A DNA stretch of 64,000 nt from Podarcis liolepis (lineage: Eukaryota): NCBI GenBank assembly GCA_965112155.1, contig OZ218099.1; one strand, given 5' to 3'. Under the pieces are notes generated by a model. The model was not told the DNA's origin and did not search any database. It saw nothing but the letters and a program-made list of their open reading frames with translations. Each line of letters begins with the position of its first letter. The first letter of the stretch is position 1. Below are positions 3,113 through 64,000 of this stretch, piece by piece. The translations under genes and the position numbers were made by a program.

Positions 3113-3616
3113 AAACCTTCTTCTCATCTTGGCATAGTTTCCCCGTTCACATTGAATTCTCCTTTGTCACAGCAAACGGGTGAATCCATCAATTACACTT
3201 TCAATTTCTTACTTTTCCAATCTTAAATCCAGTACTCCACATTTCCACATCATTTTGCAATATATATATATATTTTAAAAAAATGCATCATGAACATTCC
3301 TCAGCATTTTTGTGAATTTCTCCTAATATTCACATTTGTGTGCAGTTTTGCAACAGATATACATTTCAGCAAAGGAATGCCCCCCCAAATAATGCATTTT
3401 TGTTATGTTATCTTAACTGACAAATGCATTTTAATGCACACTCTACCCCAATGTACCGTATTTTTCGCTCCATTGGACGCACTTTTTTACTCTTAAAAAG
3501 TAAGGGGAAATGTCTGTGTGTCCTATGGAGCGAATGTGTGGTCCCTGGAGCCAAATTGCCGGAGTGTGGCACACTCTTGGACTGCTCTTTGGTGGTGGTG
3601 GTGGAGCCGTGCTCCC

Positions 3617-4030
3617 CTGCTGGCAGCCTCGGCTCCCCCCTGCAGCCCCGGGAAGATTTGGAGCAAGGGGAGGGCTGTGCGCCCATGCCCCACACTCCTG
3701 GGCTGCTGAATGGGGGTGGAAGCCGCGCTCGTCTGCCAGCAGCCTCGGCTTCCCTCTGCAGCCCCAGGAAGCTTTGGAGCAACGGGAGGGCTGTGCGCCC
3801 ATCCCCCACGCTTCTGGGCTGCTGAATGGGGTGGGGGGTGCTGCTCTGCCAGCAGCCTGCCCTTCCCCTCAAGGTTTGGAGCAGTGGGCAGGCTGTGCGC
3901 TCATGCCCCACACTCTTGGGCTGCTGAAAGGGGTGGGGGTGTTGCTCTGCCAGCAGCCTGCCCTTCCCCTCAAGGTTTGGAGCAGCGGGCAGGCTGTTCA
4001 CTGAGAGAGGGGAGGAAGAGGACGGAGAGG
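3617..4030. repeat. GC-rich tandem repeat (about 101-116 bp units) inside the Tc2-like element
   Basis: Units begin CTGC(C/T)(A/G)GCAGCCT at 3617, 3733, 3846 and 3947. Confidence 0.8.
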
Positions 4031-4367
4031 AGGGGGACCAAGAAGCTGGGTGAAGAGAGAGGAGGTACCATAGCTTGCCGTGGGTGGAGAGTCATGGTAG
4101 AGGGCAAAGGAAAGGGAGCAGTGATGGGGAGAAATTGCAGACGTCACCTGAGGAGTTTGGGTGAAAGGGATGAAGAGGAGGAGGCTGGAAAAGGGGACTG
4201 TTCTGCTTGGGGGTGGGGGAGAAAAAAGTGGGGGAAAGGAAAGCCTCCCAAGCCTGCCGCTGGGAGGCTCTGCTCAGCTGTTTCTTGACTGTAATTCAAG
4301 TAAAGTGAATGTTTGCGAGCAGCGGGCAGGCTGTTCGCTGAGAGAGGGGAGGAAGAGGACTGAGAGG

Positions 4368-4520
4368 AAAAAATGTGGCATTAGCAATGCTTTGGATGGA
4401 AACGAAGATGGTATTTTACATGAAGATAGCGAAGAAAGTGATGTCAGTGATTGTGAGCAACTGAGCTTCATAAATTCTGACTTTAGCAGTGATGAGTTCT
4501 TGGGGTTCACAGAAGACTAG
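4368..4520 (+). pseudogene. Remnant C-terminus of a pogo/Tc2-type DDE transposase (KKCGISNALDGNED plus acidic tail)
   Basis: KKCGISNALDGxED followed by a D/E/S-rich tail and a stop is the typical end of pogo-family transposases; it lies just inside the right TIR region. Confidence 0.75.
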
Positions 4521-6095: not shown

Positions 6096-6392
<297 letters not shown>

Positions 6393-8685: not shown

Positions 8686-11302
8686 TGCACATGGGAAAAA
8701 GTAATAAAACTGTGTGTGTGGAATCACTTTGATTTCAATGCACTTGAGCACACTCAACTTTGGGTTGGATGTGTTCAACTCTGTGTTCACCATCTAAGCT
8801 TCTGCATTGTTCAGCAACAGAGGCAACTGGTTGAAAGTCATTTGCAGTTCTCCATCAATATTTTGGGGAGCAGGATGAAATATATTCAGAATTTGAATTT
8901 GTAGAGTTTGGTAGCATGACAAGGCAGCTAAAACACATTTGTTTAAAAACAGTGAAAAACATTTTTACCAGTAATGCCATCTGCTAAAATATAGGAGGAC
9001 CTTAGATGTATACTGTACAAATGCTACTGTTGTTTCTATTTACGTATTAAGATTATTGCTTTGGCTAAGATTTCATACAAGATTTTGAGGTTTCTAAAAA
9101 TGTCTGCCTAGTCCCTAGTCTGCCTTCTGGGAAATCTGGTCCTACTGCCTTCTCAAAAAGGGGAGTGAAGAATGGAAAGAAGCCCTTTCCATCCATTACA
9201 CAGCATCAAGCTTTGCACCTCAAAAAATAAGATAACGAAAGGAATCTTACAACACTACAAGGAATTGCTACATACACACTCAACTAACTTTGATATGTCT
9301 ACGTTGGACTTGCATTTCACTCATAAAGCCATGCATGCATTAAAAACTCCAGAAAGCTTCTCACTTTTTTTTTTAATAGCTCAACTCATGGTGCTGGGCT
9401 TACAGCTAATAAAAGCAGTTTAAAAATATCGTCCCACGCCCTCCAAGGAATCAAATGCTCTGATTAAATCAGAGCATGGATAAAATTAAAATTGCTTCTC
9501 AATTACACACTTCCTGATGGTACATGCACACACCCCACCACATAAGCAAACTTTAACCAATATTCCACATGTCTCGGTGGGAGGGGGATATTTTCTAGAA
9601 ATTTACAAATAATTCATAGTTCAATGAGCACAATGAAACCTGCCATTCTCTCCCTTTCTCCTTGGAAAGGAGATTATTGGCAGCGGGAGGAAAGGAGGTA
9701 TGTTGACTGTTTTCCTCCTTTTTAACAAAAGGGAAGGCATGGATGTAAAAATAAGGTTAACAGGTTCCAGGGTTTTAACTGGAAGTTTCAGGATTTTAGT
9801 CCCTTCTTACATCTGCAGGAGAAATGAAATCTCAGGATGAGTTCTGGCTTAACCTCCATTGCATGTCCATTAGTCTCCATGCCAGGCACAGCCAGGCCTT
9901 CTCCTGACCCACCAAGTACCATCATCACCCCCCCACCCACACTTTTATTAGCTCCTCATTAAAGCCATTACTAAAGCACCAATTCAGCACTTTCAACTCC
10001 ATGTCTCTGGAGGAATAAAGCCTTCCAGTTGCCTCCATCTTTTTGTTGAGAGTGAAGAACTCCAAATGCTATTGTAGCATTATCAAAAAAAAGATAATCT
10101 ATCCATTCACTCTTCACCCCATGGTGGGTATCTTAAGGGGTAGTTTTCAATTTTAAGTATCACCCTGAAATTTTATCCCCCCGTATCCAAAACAAAACAG
10201 TGTCTTCCTTCTTCAATGCAAGCAGGGAACTGATGGAGGGGGGGGCGCGGAATTCAGTATTAAAACGGAGACGTCTCCTTCCTACCCTCTCTCAGAGCCA
10301 CTTATTAACAAGATTGATGCTGACCAATAAGACAATGCATTAAATAAATGGAGGCAGGAAGAAGCTAGGAATCATTGAAATCAAAATTTGGTACAAAAGA
10401 CATGGTTTTTAACAATGGGTATGAAAATTATATATTTGGTACTGAACTGGGAAAACAGCGAATTCTGTAGTAAAATAGTAGAATAGGAAGCCCAGATGTC
10501 TCAATCTGGAAGAAGCTGCAGGGTTTCTTGGAAATCAGGATGACGACAGACAAACTCTCCTCTTTTGCATCCCAACTATGAGCCAATTCACATGGCCATT
10601 TAGGGCAAAACCAGACATGCAGCTATATTTTGTAATAAAATCTAATCTAATCTGCATCTCAGTGAAGTTGGATAATATGTGATGTAATAACATAAAGCTG
10701 TGTTTGTAGAGGACAGCCTTTCAACAAAAGCAAAAATGTTTAGTGAAAGGACTTCTTATCAGCCACTGCTGCAAAAGAGGAATTGTTTGGACATATTGTC
10801 CACAGAAGATTGTTTAGGAAACCTTTCCCAAGGGCTTGGTGTTAATTGGGACATCTTTGAAAAAGACCTGATGGTCAAAATGGATCTATACAAGTTGTTT
10901 GGTAGTTTTATGATTCATTGTCCTATTCTTTGAAGGACTCTTTGAAGCATTTGTGGGTCTTATTCTTGACTGCGTCTAACGGAGACTTTAAGCCTTTCCT
11001 CTTCACCTTTGCAGTGGCCCCAACTAAAATGACCTCCCAGCTGCTACTCACATAACCAAATGAAGGCTTTCCTTCTTTTGCTTATTGCAGCTTCAGGAAG
11101 GGCAGGGCAGGGTGGAGGGCACAGCAAGAGGGAAACCTACAATCCCACTGAGGGCCCTCCTGCAGCTGCTATTCAATGTGTAAATTACTTGCATTCAGAT
11201 AATTAACCCCATGTCTAATTTGACCCTAGTTACCATTTTTGACATGGTTATTGGTCTTGGGATAGCAGCTCAAAGCATCCTGATCCTACACACCATCTAG
11301 AG

Positions 11303-11824
11303 CAGTGATGGCCAAACTCGGCCCTCCAGCTGTTTTGGGCCTACAATTCCCACCATCCCTGACCACTGGTCCTGTTAGCTAGTGAAGGAATGGGTTTCCC
11401 ATTCTAAAATCTGACTGTGTAGTCAGTCTGAAACGGGCCCCAAAATCCCATTTTTCCTTCTCCAAGGGTGCATTTTATGGTTAAGAGTACAGGAGCAGGA
11501 ACATCTGTGATGTCAACTTACGTGTATAAGCTTACGTGGCTGGATTCCTGGGGAAAGGGGGAGAGGGTGCCTGGAGGTTATATATACTGCATGGAATTTC
11601 TCATTTCTTTGGACTTGCTGTGAACTGACCACGCAAGTGCCTTCTGCTATCCGGAGAACAGAATAAACTCTTTCTCTGAATCAACCTCGGTATCATTTGA
11701 CTTTCTTTCTCTCTCCCGGGAGCAACGCAGACCCCACCAATCAGTAGAGTCTAATAAGGCTGCACTAGGGATGATGGGAGCTGTAGTCCAACAACAGGTG
11801 GAGGGCCGAGTTTGGGCATTGCTG
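11303..11824. mobile_element. hAT (Charlie-like) MITE interrupted by a solo LTR
   Basis: TIRs CAGTGATGGCCAAACTCGGCCCTCCA / TGGAGGGCCGAGTTTGGGCATTGCTG; 8-bp TSD ATCTAGAG at 11295-11302 and 11825-11832. Confidence 0.88.
11383..11764 (+). mobile_element. Solo LTR (ERV or Gypsy type), 382 bp
   Basis: TG...CA termini, 4-bp TSD CTAG (11379-11382 and 11765-11768), TATA-like TATATATA at 11579-11586, AATAAA at 11662-11667. Confidence 0.85.
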
Positions 11825-11832
11825 ATCTAGAG

Positions 11833-12074
11833 CAGTGGTTCCTAACCCCTACCGTATGCAACCCATGGGTCCACATTTACTTGGCATGGTGACTTATCAG
11901 TTTATTTTCACATGATTTTTGGACCCTAGGTCCTTGGTGGCCATTGGTTTTGTGCATTTTAGCTGCAAGTTTGTCTATTTTATAACCGTTACTTGAGACA
12001 TTCAAGCAAAAATGAAAAAGCTTTTGATACCCACCCCGCTTGTGGGCCATGAACGACAAGTTGGGGAAATGCTG
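11833..12074. mobile_element. Second hAT-type MITE, in tandem at the same target site
   Basis: Ends CAGTGGTTCCTAAC / GTTGGGGAAATGCTG; flanked by ATCTAGAG (11825-11832) and CTCTAGAG (12075-12082). Confidence 0.7.
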
Positions 12075-33340: not shown

Positions 33341-33634
<294 letters not shown>

Positions 33635-49824: not shown

Positions 49825-49906
49825 CTGAAATCTTCGCATGTCTCGAGGGTTTCCTGCATTTTTTAGGCAGTTCTGGTTACATTTAAGAAAAAATTTCAAG
49901 AAGAAC
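49825..49906 (-). CDS. EBF1: EBF1 coding exon (mammalian exon 7 equivalent), 82 nt; (R)[27 protein letters not shown], part of the COE DNA-binding domain
   Basis: Minus-strand translation matches the COE/EBF DBD motif. Acceptor CCCTTTTCCAACAG (AG at 49908-49907), donor CAG|GTCAGT (GT at 49824-49823). 1 nt + 27 codons; ends in phase 0 and joins the next exon in frame. Confidence 0.97.
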
Positions 49907-51704
49907 CTGTTGGAAAAGGGATATCGTGTTGAGTATACCAGTTGTTGACAAGTTGCCCCAATACACCCCTTGCTCACCCAGCAAACAATTTATATAAAAT
50001 TGTCTGTCCACATGTACCACATGGATAAAGATGGTCTTCTCACAGTTCTAACACACCAAACCAATGAGCCAAAAAAATAGGCATAAACTTAACACAAAAT
50101 TATTCCTCCAAAAAAGCAAAGTCATTATCCGTCTTCTAAAACATGCCGCTTGAAACTTTCATCACACAACAAGGGTACAGAGGAGAAAATGAAGCCGCCA
50201 TTTCCATGGAGTTGACGGCTGGCAGTCACAACTACAGAATTCCGGAAATGATCATATTTCCCTACTACTTGAAACAGTTATGCATTTGGGGACGACAAAT
50301 TGGCATATTTTTCACTGTCACAATTCTGGCTCCCACATACTATAATTTACAGAATTCCAAAATGTGTTTATGATGAAAAACATTCGTGCATGTAATACTG
50401 TACAGGGAGTGCGTGTGATTTCAGCTAAGGCGTTAAACACTAAATGTTCTCTCAAGGTAAGCTTGCAGCTTCATTGCTTCTCTCACCTGTGGCCCTGCAT
50501 TTTGGGTTGCAAAACTGCTGCTTCTACCATCATTATGCATTTTACTTAATAGAAAAATGGCCCTAGTAATGATACTAGTGTTGTTAGTATTATTCAGTCG
50601 TAATATCCTTTCAGAGCATTTTAAAAGTATGAGGAATATGGAGATGAGATGGCAGTCACTGGCAATAACAATGAAAGATGTCAACTTCCAGGCTTTAACA
50701 ACTCCTAAGCACTAAATCCTAAACCCCCAACTCCTATCAGAATTTCTGCCTCCCATTTTGTCTCCTTACTAGTTATCCTGGCTTTATAAACTGTTTTCCT
50801 CCCCTCTGTGATATGAAGAAGTTGCTGTTGTTCTTGGTTTACTTGTTTTTTCTTGTCGTATGTCTTAGGGGAGATGTTCTCACCCCTGCACTGAAACTAT
50901 CTGAAAACAGACTGGTAGGCAGCTGCAACACACCCGCACAAGTGGGGGGGGGGGGGACACACACACAAAAGTCAGAAAGTACTGTCACTAGAACAATAGC
51001 TGTGTTGATCTGTTGTATTTCTTCTTCTTTTTTAAAGCCTCTGTATATTTGAGAGTAACCTCATCAAACCCAGTAGGCTCCACTTCTGGGGACACATGCA
51101 AAAATTGGGTATTCTAATATGTGGTAGCCATTGTGAAAATTGAAGCCGGTGACCTATATTTATTTTAGTTATTCCAGTATACTTCTGTCTTTGGCTCTGC
51201 CTATAGTCATCACTAGCTCCACCCACTCTCACCCTGCCATGACCTGTGATGGAATGAGCCCACAGCAGAAACAAGATTGTTCACTCACCCTACCTCCATA
51301 CTACAGTAATGAATGGAAATTAATACACAACAGGAAAACATACTTAAATAAATGGGGGAGATACCATTATATAGATGCAGTTGGGTGGTCTTTGATGCCT
51401 TAAATAGGCGTTCTTACTATGGACGCTTGTCAAACAAAAGAAAAAATGTGCTAGCTAGGATGAAGTCCTCTTTCACTAAATTTGCCAGCAATTAGAGCGG
51501 TCAACTTATTAAAGGTTGTAGTCAATCAGCAGCCTTGCATTTAACTGATAAATCAATTGATTCACCATTTAAAAATTATTTCAGTATCTCAGTACAGGTT
51601 ACATTCTAAGGGTCATTACTGAAGTTTTTCCCAAACTAGCAGAAAATTATAAAGCATATCAAAAATATTTCAAAAGATCTACTAAGTGTTGCTTGTTTGT
51701 ATTT

Positions 51705-56878: not shown

Positions 56879-59508
56879 TAGTAAGATTAGTTTCTCTCAG
56901 TGACATTTTTTCAAAAGGCTAGCAAAGTATTTCTGTATCATGTGCAGAAGGAAGGAAGCCCAAACATTCTGCAACCTACTTCTAAACAAAGGCACCACAT
57001 CGCCAGCACTTTTGTCTTTAAAGATGCCTCTGTTTATGAGTAGGGTGCTCAGGGTATAGTGTTCCTTCCATTTCTTTAATCATACAAAATACTAACATGT
57101 AAACCACACACATCCAGGGGGTAAACAGCCACAGACAATGGTAATATTGAAATACAAAATTCCCTAGGCAGAAAAGTAACATGTAAATAAACAATGGGTA
57201 GCGATTCAGAATTGCCTCCTGGGATCAGGACTCAGAAAACAGGATGAACTGGGAGGAGCAGGACTTTGTCCACTTGTGAACTATGGTAGAAAACCAGCAG
57301 TTGTTTTCAGTGCTAGACTGAATATAATGTCCCCTAAACAAGTAGAAAGTGTATTTCCGTCACTAAACAGAGTTGTTATTATTAGGGTGAAGGCCTTCCA
57401 ATATGAAGGTGGTATTGCAGACTGGAAACTAGAAATTTTGCACTAGTGAGAAGAAACCAAACCAGTGGACCTTGAAAAGGTCTCAGTACTCTATCCAGGA
57501 ACTGGCCCCATCAAAGAGAAGGAAGCAGGGAATAGGTGAAGGCAGAAACTGGTCCTCCCATAAGCTTTGGCCCTCCCAGTCTGGGGTGCGATATGGTAGT
57601 GCTGTGTCCTACTCTGCTGAGAACCATTCCCTATTTTGAAAACTGTCTGGTCCAAGTCCAGTTCAGAATTAAATAACTATAAGGAAGAGGTGGGTCTTTG
57701 AAATTGCCTGTTATAATTAATACCTGGACAGAAGACTGAGCAGACTTGCAGATCACCTAGTTATAGTCTTGCCCAATGTGATGAGATCTATCACATTTTA
57801 AAGATATATACACCACACACACACACGTTCAAATTTCCATCTATTTATATGAATTAGCATATACAAATATTATGTAAATCTGTGTCCTTCCCCCACCCCC
57901 GGTGATACATTTTCCTCTTTTTTAGTGATGCAGAAGTGGCCACCCTAGGGGATACACCATTTGGTGTTATGCTTCAGACAGCAAAATGTCCTGAGCCAGC
58001 ACTGATCGTATCACAGATAATCAGTTTTGCTATACTCAGTCCTGGGAAGGATCCCATCAGAGTAAACCATTTCATCACAATCAGCTTCTCCTTGAAATGT
58101 GGCACAGCCCAGCCAGGTATGTGGAATGCTGGGAATTCAGAATGTGCTGGAGCCAAGGAATGGCTCTTGCTTCCTCCAACTTGGGCCACTGATAATGCCC
58201 TGGTCTTGTCACTGCTCTGATGCAGAACTCAAAGGGACTCAAAAATGAAGCAGGATTTCATTTGCCACTGCCACAATCTTTGGGAGGAAAGGGGGATAGC
58301 CAGGAAGGCAAAACCTACATTCCTGGTACTGAAGAAAAGCATGTTTGTTCTAATACATTGGAGAAACTGTTTGAGAACGGTTCATCCATGCAAATATATG
58401 ACAGCAGTAAGGCTGCCAGAGTCAGTGAAACATGTGGTGATTCCACAGTACAAGTGTCAACTGCATACTTAAACCTGTCTAGAATAAAAGGGAAGCTGCA
58501 AGCTACCTATTTCAAGTTTTATGAACATGTTAGTGAAGAAAGCGAGTCTGGATTCCGAGGAATTCTCTCGCAGAGGGTATGTGCCTGCAACACTGGCTGC
58601 TTTGCATCTTTCTCACCCTAAAGGACTTCTGACTCTTTAAGGCCAGAAGAAGAAGAAAACAGCTTTGTGTATAACAACAGGGGTGTGCTGTGTTTTCAGG
58701 CAGAAAGCTGCATCTTACATTCCAGTTATGGGTTCAAACAGCCAAGATGGATGCTTCAAAGAGCACAGTGGCCAATGGGGAGCAGAAAGTAGGGAGGAAA
58801 TCTCAGACAAAAGCAGCATGCAGTAAGCAACCATTCCCACAATTACTACTTGCAAGGGTGTCCTATGGCACATTCACTCTTTTCTAAGTTACGGGGGGGG
58901 GGGGAGCAGGAATTCACAACAGCATATGAATGCCATCCGTGTAACAACACAGTAGTATTGTCACTAGATCAACAGCATACGTAAGGTATCGTAACAAAAA
59001 GAACTAGGGACAATAACTTGATTCTGGGTAAATAAATGATCTGTTAGTTAGAGCTCTTAATGATAACTTCCATAAAAAGAGAATATGAACACAGTCTGGC
59101 CTGGGCTACAAAGCCTGAAACACCAATAGAGACAGAAGTGACAGAAGCACCGGGTTAGAAACTGCACCATCTCTCCCCACCCCCTGCCGTCAGCAGTGTC
59201 AGTGACTCAAAGAGAAAACTCTCTGCCATTGAGCCAATGAATGGCTTGGACTTTTTCCTGACCTAACCCAGAAGCTGTAATGGGTAGCTGCATACCTCTC
59301 AACAGTCCCACGTTAATCGGGATGTCCTGGAATTACAGAAGCCCTCCTGGCTTCCAGTTGGACCCTGGGATGTCCCAAAAGATGTGCATCCCTCTTTCCC
59401 CCTGCAGCATATTGGGGGGCATGCTGCTGGAGATAGACATCCCATGAAGTAGTCCCATAGGCATGAAATTTGCTCGTGGCACACCAAAGTTTTTATTGAT
59501 AAGAAATA

Positions 59509-59924
59509 CAGTGGTGCCCCGCAAGACAAATGCCTCGCAAGACAAAAAACTCGCTAGACGAAAGGTTTTTCCGTTCGCGATTTGCCTCGCAAGACGAATT
59601 TCCCCTATGGGCTTGCTTCGCAAGACGAAAACGTCTCGCGACTTTTTTTTCTTTGACTAAAAACAAAGACATGTTTTGTTTATAAAGTTAATTTATTTTC
59701 CCTTAAATTTTTGAACTGCTCTTTACAGTATGTGTGACTTTAAAGAGCAGTTAATAAACTGTTGTTGTACCAAATTTGGCTTTGTTTGGACTTTTTTTGA
59801 CCATAGGAACGCATTAATTGATTTTCAATGCATTCCTATGGGATTTCGTGATTCGCAAGACGAAAAATTCGCTAGACAACAAAAATTGCGGAACGAATTA
59901 ATTTCGTCTTGCGGGGCACCACTG
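59509..59924. mobile_element. Tc1/mariner (Tigger-like) MITE, 416 bp
   Basis: Perfect 19-bp TIR CAGTGGTGCCCCGCAAGAC, TA TSD, several internal CGCAAGACGAA-like repeats. Confidence 0.92.
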
Positions 59925-62900
59925 TACATTGGAAAACAAAAAAGAAACATCTCCTAGCAATGCTTGATTTCCATGCAATGTTTTTGGCATTAGAATGCCA
60001 GCCTGTATTTCCCCCTCCCCATTTAATCCAGTTTTACTCTTATTGGGGTGGTGGGGGGGAGATAGTTAAAAATGCCCTACTGACAATGATCCATTTGTGA
60101 CATCACAGTGACACATTTCCAAATTCAGCTGCTGTCTGAAAGCTCCCTGGGTTGGGAGCAGGGGGCACTGCTGTGCAGCACTTTTCCACCATGAGATCTA
60201 AGAAGGTGGTTCTGTGAGATTGCTCTCCTTGCCTCTGGAAGATCTCTTGGGGATTCTGTGGGAATCTACCCTGTCTCCATTGCATGAAACTGCTGGAAGC
60301 ATAATCCAAAATCTGAGCAAATTCTCATCACCCAGCCCTCTTTCTTGTTTCATCCGAACTAGGCCTAGCTGTTTCATTCAATAATGATTGCTCCCCTGGT
60401 GCTAAGACAATGCTTCAGCTATTTTCCTTATTATTATATGGTTTGCTATGTGATTTTGATTTTTACTTTCTAATACTGTTCTCCATTTACAGGACTCCTG
60501 AGTATGAATTGAATATTGGATTTTAAACCAAGAAAAAAAAGAATGGTGAGGACATTATGGTGTTTTCCACTGATGCAGTGTATCCTGGCCATCAGATGTA
60601 GTGCTGAATTATTCAAGCTGAAGGCATCCAATGCATCTTTTTCATGTAGACTATGCATGTGTTTTATGTTCATTGATCATTGGTTAAAGTAATTTAGATC
60701 AATGCCCATTCTGAAAATAAATTCTACCAAGTACTCAAGAAATATAGTTGAAAACACAGCAACTTGAAATTAAAACTACCTTTCATTTCCTCGTAAGCCC
60801 TCCCAGTATTACAACTATTTTATATTGGAACATTTTGCATACAAGTGTGGGGTTATGTGATGGCCACTGGTTATCAAAGATCTACAGAAGGCTTACATAT
60901 ATTTATCAGCATGAAATTGAACATGAAAATCAAATACAGAAACAGGAAAAGCCACTTTTTTACCCACAGGTTCACAGCTGGCTTGTGCATGTCTCTTAAA
61001 TCAATAATCAGCATTAGCTATCCTTTGCGACACACTCACAACAGGAAAATAATTCTTCAGAGCATAAGTTACGCATCACAATGCCTACAAATTGCTTGTT
61101 GACTTTAGCAGAAGCAATTAGAGCTATCTCTGTCTTACAGCCCAATCCTATGCATGTTTAGTGAGGTCAGTGAGATTTGGGCCTGGTTCAGACATAAAAA
61201 TCTCAACTGTGGTTATTCACCCAAGAATAGAACTTTCCCTCTGGTCCTCAGTGGACCCAGCTTGTTTAAGCCAGTTTCACATTACCTCTGGACAAGAAAA
61301 CTGTACTGGAATTTCAGTTTCCTAATCAGGAAGTGAAAGCAGGTTGCTAAGGAGGCATTAAATCACGGTTTCCCAGTTCTGATATAATTGGAAACTGTGG
61401 TTTAAACAAGACACGATCTCAGTGCTAACACCTGGCCTTGGATAATAGGAGAACGAGAAACAGAACAGACTAGGTTATTTTTATGAACTTTCTAACAAAG
61501 ACTATGACTTGTTACAGTGAATATAAACGATATTTGTTTCAGTGCTGGAAACGGTTGGAAAGAACCCACCTAATCACTGAAGCAGAAGCTACTCTTGCCC
61601 AGAGGCAGCCTTCAACTACTCACAGCTTGTTTCACCAAAGTTTTCAAGTTGCTTTTCTATAGGCCTCATCGTGCTCTGTGCACTGGAGCACAGCACATCA
61701 ATTTTTTAAACTTCCAGCCACTCTTCTACCTTCTTCAGTTCCCTATTTTCAGAATTTACAACACTCCACAGAAATCCAGACCATTTCAGAGAATTACATC
61801 GTCATTCCCTTCCAAGCAGACAACATTCCCACAAAAATGCTTAGGTTTTTCAGAGGAATCTAAAGAGATCTCACACAACATGTTAATGTTGCGCACAAAG
61901 ATAGAGCATTACCACAGAAGACACAACAAAATAAGTAAGGTAAGATTTATGCCCTGCTTTCCCCTAATTTGATCTTGCTTCCCAGGGTCTCATTTTACAA
62001 TGATTCTCTCTCTCTCTCTGAAGGGCTAACTTTTTATTTCATGTGGCAGGCAGTGGGCTGGGACAGTAGAAAAGAAGGTAATTTTTCTTCCTCTTGCAGA
62101 GCAATTCCAGTAGCCCTGTGTGTGACTAGAAATTATTTTAAGGGGTAGAGTAGTGGAGGGAGAGACCTTTGGAACCGACTTTGGGGAGAAGCTGAGGGCT
62201 GTAGTGGGAAGGACTGGACAATTCTCTGAATCAGAGCCAAAATTGTGTGTTTTTTTAATGCTGCTACACACTCCCAGGGTTTAGCAACAGGGCAGGATGG
62301 ATCAATAAATAAACAATGGGTGGTATCCAATGCTAGTCATACTCAAGAGTAAGCTCACTGAAATCCATGAAGTTAAGTCAATTATGTTTAAAGGACAGAG
62401 TACTCTATGATTCGATTGACCATCACCCAAAATATTATGCAAAATATTGATTCATACACCGTACTTCTACAAATGGTAGCTTGTTCCCAGGCAGTCTTTT
62501 ACTGGCTAGTTTTTTTGGCAGGAATGAGCACCAAAAACACATACATGTTGAGCAGATGGGACACAATCAATAATAATAATAATAACAACTACTACATAGG
62601 AGAAAGGAATTTTGCATAACCAAGGGGTGTATCTACCAACACTATTCACTTTAAACAAGTCCTAATCCAGAGGACTGAGACCCAGAACTAAGTACAATGT
62701 AGATTCATTGTTTAGTTCTACAGTGACACAGGGAGGCAAGTTGACTATGTTATCCCCATACACATGAGCAGTGCAAGCATTCAAGCTGTGCTTTCCTCTT
62801 TCTTCATGGTTCATAGTCACTGTCTGCTATGTAGCAGCCAAGGAAGTATTGCTTTAGCAGAGATGGTGACAGGCCTCTCCAGAATTAGAGTACTTTATTA

Positions 62901-63592
62901 TCACATTAGTATGGGGGAAAGACACATAATTAACGGAATTTATCCTCATTTATTCAGTAAAAGCACTAATATTCAATCAATCTGCCTCTGTTTAATTACT
63001 TTCCCTTACACTATTTTTTTTTTCTTCCTTGACCCCTCAAGTAGTAGAGTACAGAAATGTGTGAAGTCTTCTTCTTTTTTAATTCCACTTAGGATGCTAG
63101 ACACTATTCATCGAAATAAGCGTTAAAAAACGGAACTGGGGTCTGTCACAGTTCACAAGCTGCCACAGAGTTAGCAGCCATGCCAGTATTATACTTTTGC
63201 TAGAAGAAATGCTATTAAGTGATGGCATTTAACAGAATTACCGTTAATTGTAATATGACACTATTGTCCAAGCGCCTGTTATGGGGGGGGGGGGAGAGAC
63301 TATTGTTCAAGTGGCATGAGTTCCTAACAGGAAAACTATGCACATGTCTACTTAATGGGACTTAATCCCAAGTAACTGTGTATAGGATTTTATCCTAGGA
63401 ACATTGGGATCAATTAACACTGGCTTTAAACTCGCAGCAGAATTAGGTGAGTATGGGGGGGGGGGGTCAGGTACTAGAATGGACTGCTCAACTTCTATGT
63501 TTTTGTTGTTTATTTAAAGTCCCTGGAAAAAACAAAGCTTGCATTGGAGGCAAAGGGGAAGGATTTCCACCTGAAGTGCTAGTTCTCTAGTT

Positions 63593-64000
63593 CAGTGTTT
63601 CCCAACCGGTGTTCCGCGGCACACTACTGTGCCGTGAGACATTGGCTGGTGTGCCGTGGGAGGGAGGCGGGTGAGAGGCGGCGGCGGCGAGGATCCGCGT
63701 CGAGCCGGGGACGGCTCCGCGGTGGTGGTGCCGAGCGGCGGGACAGCGCGTGCAAAAGGGAGGAGCGCGAGACAGCGGAGGAGGAGGAGGCCGGCATGTC
63801 CGGGCAGCAGCAGCAACAACAGCAGCAGCAACTCCCGGCGACGGCTCCTCAAGCCCCGCCGCCGCCCCCTCCTCCGCTCGCTATCGCCGCCACCACCACA
63901 ACAGCCGCCGCCGCCTCAGTTGCCGCCGTCCCTCAGTCCCTCGCTCTGCTGCCTCCTCCCACCCCCAAAGCTTGGAGGTTCCCCGGCAAGGGGGAGGGAA
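63593..64000 (+). mobile_element. Left end of a young CpG-rich hAT-like element carrying gene-like cargo; runs off the window
   Basis: Abrupt switch from AT-rich to very GC/CpG-rich sequence at CAGTGTTTCCCAACC, preceded by CTCTAGTT (hAT-Charlie-like target); subterminal GCGGCACAC..GTGCCG motifs. Confidence 0.7.

Follow-up and report, generated by a model that had tools for sequence, protein, structure and literature searches.

The DNA analysed here, called the window throughout, is a stretch of 64,000 nucleotides from Podarcis liolepis (contig OZ218099.1), and at its last positions it runs into the left part of a DNA transposon (Table 1). The sequence CTCTAGTT is followed by the end sequence CAGTGTTTCCCAACC and then by GC-rich DNA, in which an ATG with a G at position -3 opens a frame of 68 codons running to the window edge. 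From 63663 to 64000 the GC content is 0.73 and the observed/expected ratio of CpG 0.87, whereas over all 64,000 nucleotides these values are 0.42 and 0.25. An earlier note, made from the letters alone, had described a hAT-type end, CpG-island-like DNA, this start codon and an open frame with its translation, and all of them are present. An intron of a minus-strand EBF/COE gene, to which the ATG frame is antisense, harbours the element; further exons of this gene, which we take to be EBF1, are found at 33451-33592 and near 6250.

The window also holds other transposons. A complete hAT-type element at ~11303-11824 (window 11295-11850) carries a presumably LTR-like filler, with ATCTAGAG duplicated exactly, and directly after it a second hAT left end at 11833 indicates tandem use of one target site. 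The element at 3430-4520, whose end type we take to be Tc1/mariner-like, contains a GC-rich filler of 100-116-base repeats.

Table 1. Features of the transposon at the right edge of the window and the nearest host exon.
Feature	Position	Strand	Remarks
Nearest EBF/COE exon (approximate ends)	49825..49908	-	element upstream of it, in intron
Candidate left copy of 8-bp duplication, target CTCTAGTT	63585..63592	.	5/6 fixed letters of NTCTAGAN
Left terminal inverted repeat, Charlie/Buster-type hAT (CAGTGTTTCCCAACC)	63593..63607	+	12/14 letters as in hAT-HT3_AC end; depth jump
Subterminal region with three GTGTGCCG-like repeats (63609, 63627, 63649)	63608..63659	+	
GC-rich leader, likely donor 5' untranslated region (inferred)	63660..63795	+	adjoins RANBP9-like start
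Start codon and codons 1-21 (MSG, Q9, L...), likely RANBP9 N-terminus	63796..63858	+	
GCCCCG direct-repeat scar, internal deletion	63853..63858	+	6 raw reads, 10 contigs, P0004
Poly-Pro, Thr, Ala block, likely same donor exon	63859..63919	+	continues longer version past first scar
Second deletion scar: 8 bases replace a longer, in-frame-looking stretch of other copies	63920..63927	+	run X5
High-copy segment, source not matched; element runs past 64000	63928..64000	+	

The transposon end and the open frame

Judged by its letters and its target, the end at 63593 fits a Charlie/Buster-type hAT. It shares 12 of 14 letters with the end of hAT-HT3_AC and has a short terminal repeat of the CAGTG..TCCCAA type (PMC3014272, Table 1), and both the window site and the loose ends before 63593 follow the target preference NTCTAGAN with its central TA. 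In excerpts of Novick et al. (2011, PMC3014272) hAT-HT3_AC of Anolis is described as Charlie-related, with the end CAGTGRTTCCCAAA, the target NTCTAGAN in its derivatives and non-autonomous families of hundreds of copies; the window element differs from it in two of the 14 end letters and is likened to it by end and target only. Other copies of the window family, as seen in the loose ends before 63593, mostly have A at 63591 and G at 63592.

The same end pattern was found at 62 metagenome loci (L001-L062), all short non-autonomous elements of ~200-385 bases with unequal ends, and had 0 matches in prokaryote genomes. Among 34 distinct flanks of these elements, 16 carry an 8-base duplication with at most one mismatch (7 exact), and some insertions had been assembled twice. 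Over its first 64 bases, the three subterminal repeats included, the window element is 77-81% identical to the metagenome elements; past this point the latter are AT-rich and unrelated, whereas the window element is GC-rich from ~63660. Because the likeness to related hAT ends stops there, ~63660 would be the left edge of a foreign piece, which is thus flanked by transposon sequence on its left side, while its right side lies beyond 64000. A complete copy is expected to have, beyond 64000, a right end like GGTTGGGAAACACTG followed by CTCTAGTT. In run X23, at the loose end before 63585, 26 RNA reads join right-end-like sequence, ~8 bases and the family left end, which reads as another tandem arrangement or an end-to-end junction.

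The open frame and the mixing of synonymous codons in its homopolymer runs had been put forward in the earlier note as evidence of a real protein N-terminus. Both features exist, but they are statistically weak. With 3000 dinucleotide shuffles as the chance test for frame and interior, 68% of shuffles keep the frame from 63796 open, 23% keep all three frames open, and 14% of shuffled interiors yield an ATG with a purine at -3 and 60 open codons; in the actual sequence, all three plus-strand frames from 63796 to 64000 are without a stop. Neighbouring codon pairs one letter apart are synonymous in 8 of 17 cases against 4.8 expected (p 0.079), and in 10 of 17 cases in the mirror antisense frame. 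For these reasons, the open frame and the codon mixing alone fall short of proving a coding origin of the interior. An antisense Leu-rich reading (63595-63915) was set aside, as a start codon is absent after its stop. Rfam gave 0 matches over 58000-64000, and the interior pattern had 0 matches in the metagenome contigs searched.

Abundance and deleted forms of the family

Part of 63480-64000 is present in 20 of the 24 runs listed (10 studies, 8 organism labels). Contig depth was examined in four of these runs, X1, X5, X15 and X23, of which X1 and X5 are DNA-type, with 3632 and 2706 contigs placed, respectively. In X1 the summed contig depth, which does not equal copy number, is 60-150 on the flank (63410-63564), 1.8-2.7 million at the end and 275,000-1,056,000 in the interior bins, a range that leaves out one bin where depth dips to 17,700 at the CAG run because reads get cut there by the method. 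X5 has the same profile, with an interior depth of 54,000-347,000. In both DNA-type runs the interior is thousands of times deeper than the flank, and it is therefore the body of an abundant family and no one-off cargo. After division of the depth by the largest possible overlap factor, 31, ~90-570 copies remain, and the true copy number may lie in the thousands. The step in depth at 63593 and the mixed loose ends before it (agreement 0.44-0.52) indicate dispersed copies with differing flanks.

Across the junction of end and interior, depth in X1 is continuous (767,000 at 63658-63688), and two contigs, 63597-63675 (depth 569) and 63606-63671, span it. None of the contigs among the matches listed bridges the junction with 31 letters on each side, and the contigs are too short to link the cargo to several flanks. 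Furthermore, depth over the end region is 2-3 times that of the interior; many ends therefore carry other interiors. The GC-rich piece, which resembles the start of RANBP9 (see below), might accordingly be a separate high-copy repeat, a retrocopy fragment or a nested insertion that abuts a short hAT end, or the product of an assembly join. The surplus of ends and the missing 31-letter bridge speak for such a separate origin, as does the fact that no right end lies within the window, but the continuous depth, the two spanning contigs and the coincidence between the start of the GC-rich DNA and the end of the likeness to related hAT ends make it very improbable. In X15 and X23, many reads leave the element within 63626-63675 for other GC-rich interiors, and more than one kind of captured piece may thus travel with this hAT end.

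Longer versions of the interior occur in other copies. A protein from a 1751-base contig, P0004, is identical to window codons 1-21 in 21 of 21 residues, then has 25 extra codons between two Ala-Pro pairs and rejoins the window for five residues, staying in a single frame across the deletion site. Six raw reads jump from 63858 back to 63853, with other bases standing between the two, and 10 contigs join 63853 from elsewhere. Based on these reads and the extra codons of P0004, the first scar is a deletion between GCCCCG repeats; the block behind it (63859-63919) is as deep as the remaining interior. A second stretch is missing at 63920-63927, since nine X5 contigs part from the window sequence after 63919 and 10 join it at 63928. 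The window copy is an internally deleted form of the longer version, and the short form itself has spread, given that contigs from organism label D (records 13 and 14) contain its junctions as well. Additionally, variants without 63966-63984 (a 19-base deletion at a CCCC repeat) continue into AT-rich sequence, and a further variant skips 63694-63895. Thus, where the earlier note had seen captured cargo, a host piece is still likely, but not as one-off cargo: the members of an abundant family have the interior in common as their body, of which the window holds an internally deleted copy.

The likely donor and known captures

The donor of the interior is likely exon 1 of RANBP9 (RanBPM), as suggested by three anchors in the sequence. 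RANBP9 was already the candidate when the sequences were compared, and the MSGQ match was therefore not blind. Firstly, the 12 bases from the ATG are those of a human RanBPM start primer in all 12 positions (a text search of open-access papers gave two that match; PMC3874158). Secondly, human RanBPM begins, in the excerpted residues 1-25, with MSGQ, six Pro, eight Gln and Leu (PMC4319831), compared with MSG, nine Gln and Leu in the window. Thirdly, by-eye translation of X5 loose ends in the ATG frame gives AGPMPAGSGG and then PTLVVGG, which resemble human residues 113-126, GPAGGAPTPALVAG in the same excerpt (PMC4319831). The three anchors, that is the 12-base start, the polyQ-L start and the downstream motif, stand in the same order as in RanBPM. 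The longer form of the family presumably resembles the RanBPM N-terminus, and the P0004 block (ALLLH, poly-Pro, AT.A, poly-Pro) matches what we take to be the central block of the human protein; a human counterpart of the ALLLH-poly-Pro block was not found in the RanBPM literature text and supplements searched.

Compared with RanBPM as excerpted in PMC4319831 and PMC3874158, the window frame is alike in start codon context, MSGQ, polyQ followed by Leu and Pro/Ala runs, and the longer form has the P-x-L-V-x-G motif in common with it. In contrast to those excerpts, the window copy lacks poly-Pro before polyQ, has two deletions, and no SPRY or later domains were seen. The last 24 codons of the window do not match human residues 127-134. 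The earlier note's claim that a first coding exon was captured needs one correction: as judged from the RanBPM sequences compared, none of which matches the last 70 bases, the exon was taken up only in part. P0004 leaves the window sequence after residue 49, and its tail fits no window frame (best p 0.03 of 6 tests). Since the last 24 codons misfit human 127-134 and the P0004 tail fits neither, more than one piece may have been captured.

Past the shared 49 residues, P0004 reads like another CpG island, with a possible splice donor close to its end. Either a family variant that captured a second gene start or a family copy lying within a promoter may account for it. That P0004 is the parent locus itself is unlikely, as its tail is without a RanBPM domain and departs from the window after that residue; in viral contigs it had 0 matches. 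A single RNA-type contig reaches 63663 out of GC-rich sequence that is not transposon, and it may represent the parent's leader.

Protein searches for the parent gave no match at E 0.01 among 1937 candidates and none at E 10 among 331, and a search among 8000 gave a single match, P0004, at E 1.7. In Pfam, five frames and P0004 all stayed below the cut-off, PDB gave 0 matches, and the ESM Atlas gave no usable match; RANBP9 or a vertebrate parent was returned by no protein or structure search. Low complexity could explain these blanks. Three matches to cluster representatives (two RCC1-like, one nematode protein) were discarded as chance, being repeat proteins with summed weak stretches.

Two other origins of the interior have to be weighed against these results. 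If slippage within the element had produced this GC-rich, low-complexity DNA as its own filler, both the likeness to RANBP9 and the ATG frame would be due to chance. The weak frame statistics, the searches without a parent, the amino-acid changes among the frame differences of the family and the GC-rich repeat filler of another DNA transposon in the window (3430-4520) are in keeping with this; however, the 12 of 12 start bases, the polyQ-L start and the downstream motif point to one gene in the right order, and the longer form keeps a single frame across the deletion in P0004, for which reasons we consider filler quite improbable. Capture from another host gene whose start is similarly rich in Pro and Gln appears very improbable: low-complexity N-termini do look alike, no parent was returned, and neither the P0004 tail nor the last 70 bases fit RanBPM, but the three ordered anchors fit RanBPM, and a second captured piece or a junction explains the mismatch of the tail.

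With good confidence, we therefore read the end of the window as the left part of a Charlie/Buster-type hAT whose GC-rich interior, very deep in related genomes, is likely the RANBP9 5' leader and the first part of exon 1. The proposal of the earlier note, a hAT with a host 5' leader and first coding exon, thereby gains support from the type of the end and from the likely donor, and the family is likely a high-copy Pack-hAT.

Capture of gene pieces by vertebrate cut-and-paste transposons is thought to be almost always single-copy, according to excerpts of Tan et al. (2021, PMC8277862), which give four cases (1.4%) of multicopy vertebrate Pack-TIRs, with none in the one lizard surveyed. In the same excerpts, multicopy Pack-TIRs favour GC-rich cargo and distant donors, and template switching is modelled. 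One of them, Pack-hAT-N8_XT, carries the CAPSL 5' UTR in three copies (PMC8277862) and is like the window element in having hAT ends around a captured 5' gene piece. Compared with the Pack-TIRs in these excerpts, the window family includes coding sequence, has deletion subfamilies and would, by its depth, number a hundred copies or more; RANBP9 had 0 matches in the 12 supplementary files searched of that paper. Bat Helitrons such as HelibatN3/NUBPL, as excerpted from Thomas et al. (2014, PMC4224331), carry captured promoters and first exons in about a thousand copies. They resemble the window family in the amplification of a 5' UTR with first exon, Helitron 5' pieces reaching the highest copy numbers (PMC4224331), but, as described there, they move by a rolling circle and lack both terminal inverted repeats and 8-bp duplications, unlike the cut-and-paste hAT of the window. 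In Anolis, hobo_AC takes up foreign DNA, and the filler reported in the excerpts of PMC3014272 consists of transposon fragments, with no host coding exon among them. We found no published report of RANBP9 capture in the open-access literature. Pack-TIR capture and Helitron amplification are thus known, and what is likely new is a hAT doing so at a hundred copies or more. If true, a hAT family built around a RANBP9 exon shows that cut-and-paste elements, too, mass-amplify captured first exons, and that such captures can hide inside repeat consensus sequences.

Host locus, age and transcription

In at least three interior letters (63711, 63743, 63878), about 1%, the window copy departs from almost every other copy. 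The flank in X1 has two haplotypes (depth 29 and 31), which join in a contig that stops exactly at 63592, a fork expected of a filled and an empty allele, the alternative in this one sample being a chance variant there. Together with the intact CpGs (observed/expected 0.87), which are in keeping with the young age proposed in the earlier note, the private letters and the contig stop lead us to infer that the window copy inserted recently and is possibly still polymorphic. The X1 flank haplotypes differ over 63383-63528 by 8 letters and 2 gaps in 146 bases, which is unusually high for one individual.

The history of the family may be pictured as follows. The RANBP9 piece would have entered a non-autonomous founder hAT in a single event, for which template switching in gap repair or replication is the probable route, with G/A-rich microhomology at ~63660. 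Transposase supplied in trans, none being seen in the window, would have spread this founder, and microhomology deletions would have given rise to shorter subfamilies that still moved. One doubly deleted copy would then have landed recently in the EBF intron, where it may still be polymorphic.

Among the frame differences between family copies are amino-acid changes, and the frame is most likely a relic of the donor that yields no functional protein. The window copy is expected to be a neutral passenger that brings in CpG-island-like sequence; the promoter antisense to EBF1 that the earlier note proposed is putative. In human RanBPM, the Pro/Gln N-terminus is a nuclear-targeting motif, according to the excerpted text of PMC4319831. 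A more far-reaching possibility, which we hold to be unlikely, is that the hAT is still mobile and has spread the CpG-island first exon of RANBP9, with its start codon, over lizard genomes in hundreds to thousands of copies, that some of these act as portable promoters or donate Pro/Gln N-termini to new transcripts, and that the window copy works within EBF1 as an antisense promoter that still segregates. Many near-identical CpG-island copies at different sites, some of them likely polymorphic, would serve as a natural experiment, showing whether CpG-island sequence is by itself enough to resist methylation and to initiate transcription.

Raw RNA reads of X23 cover the interior thinly and in both orientations, and no start site stood out, a pattern as passive transcription of many copies would give. 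In the run listing no RNA holder is on record, from which nothing follows about expression. This run carries another organism label and may lack the insertion, and it has almost no RNA depth on the flank. For the variant that skips 202 bases (63693-63896), X15 and X23 hold 15 RNA reads with a single orientation and 12 starts, which may mean that one such copy is transcribed within a stable RNA.
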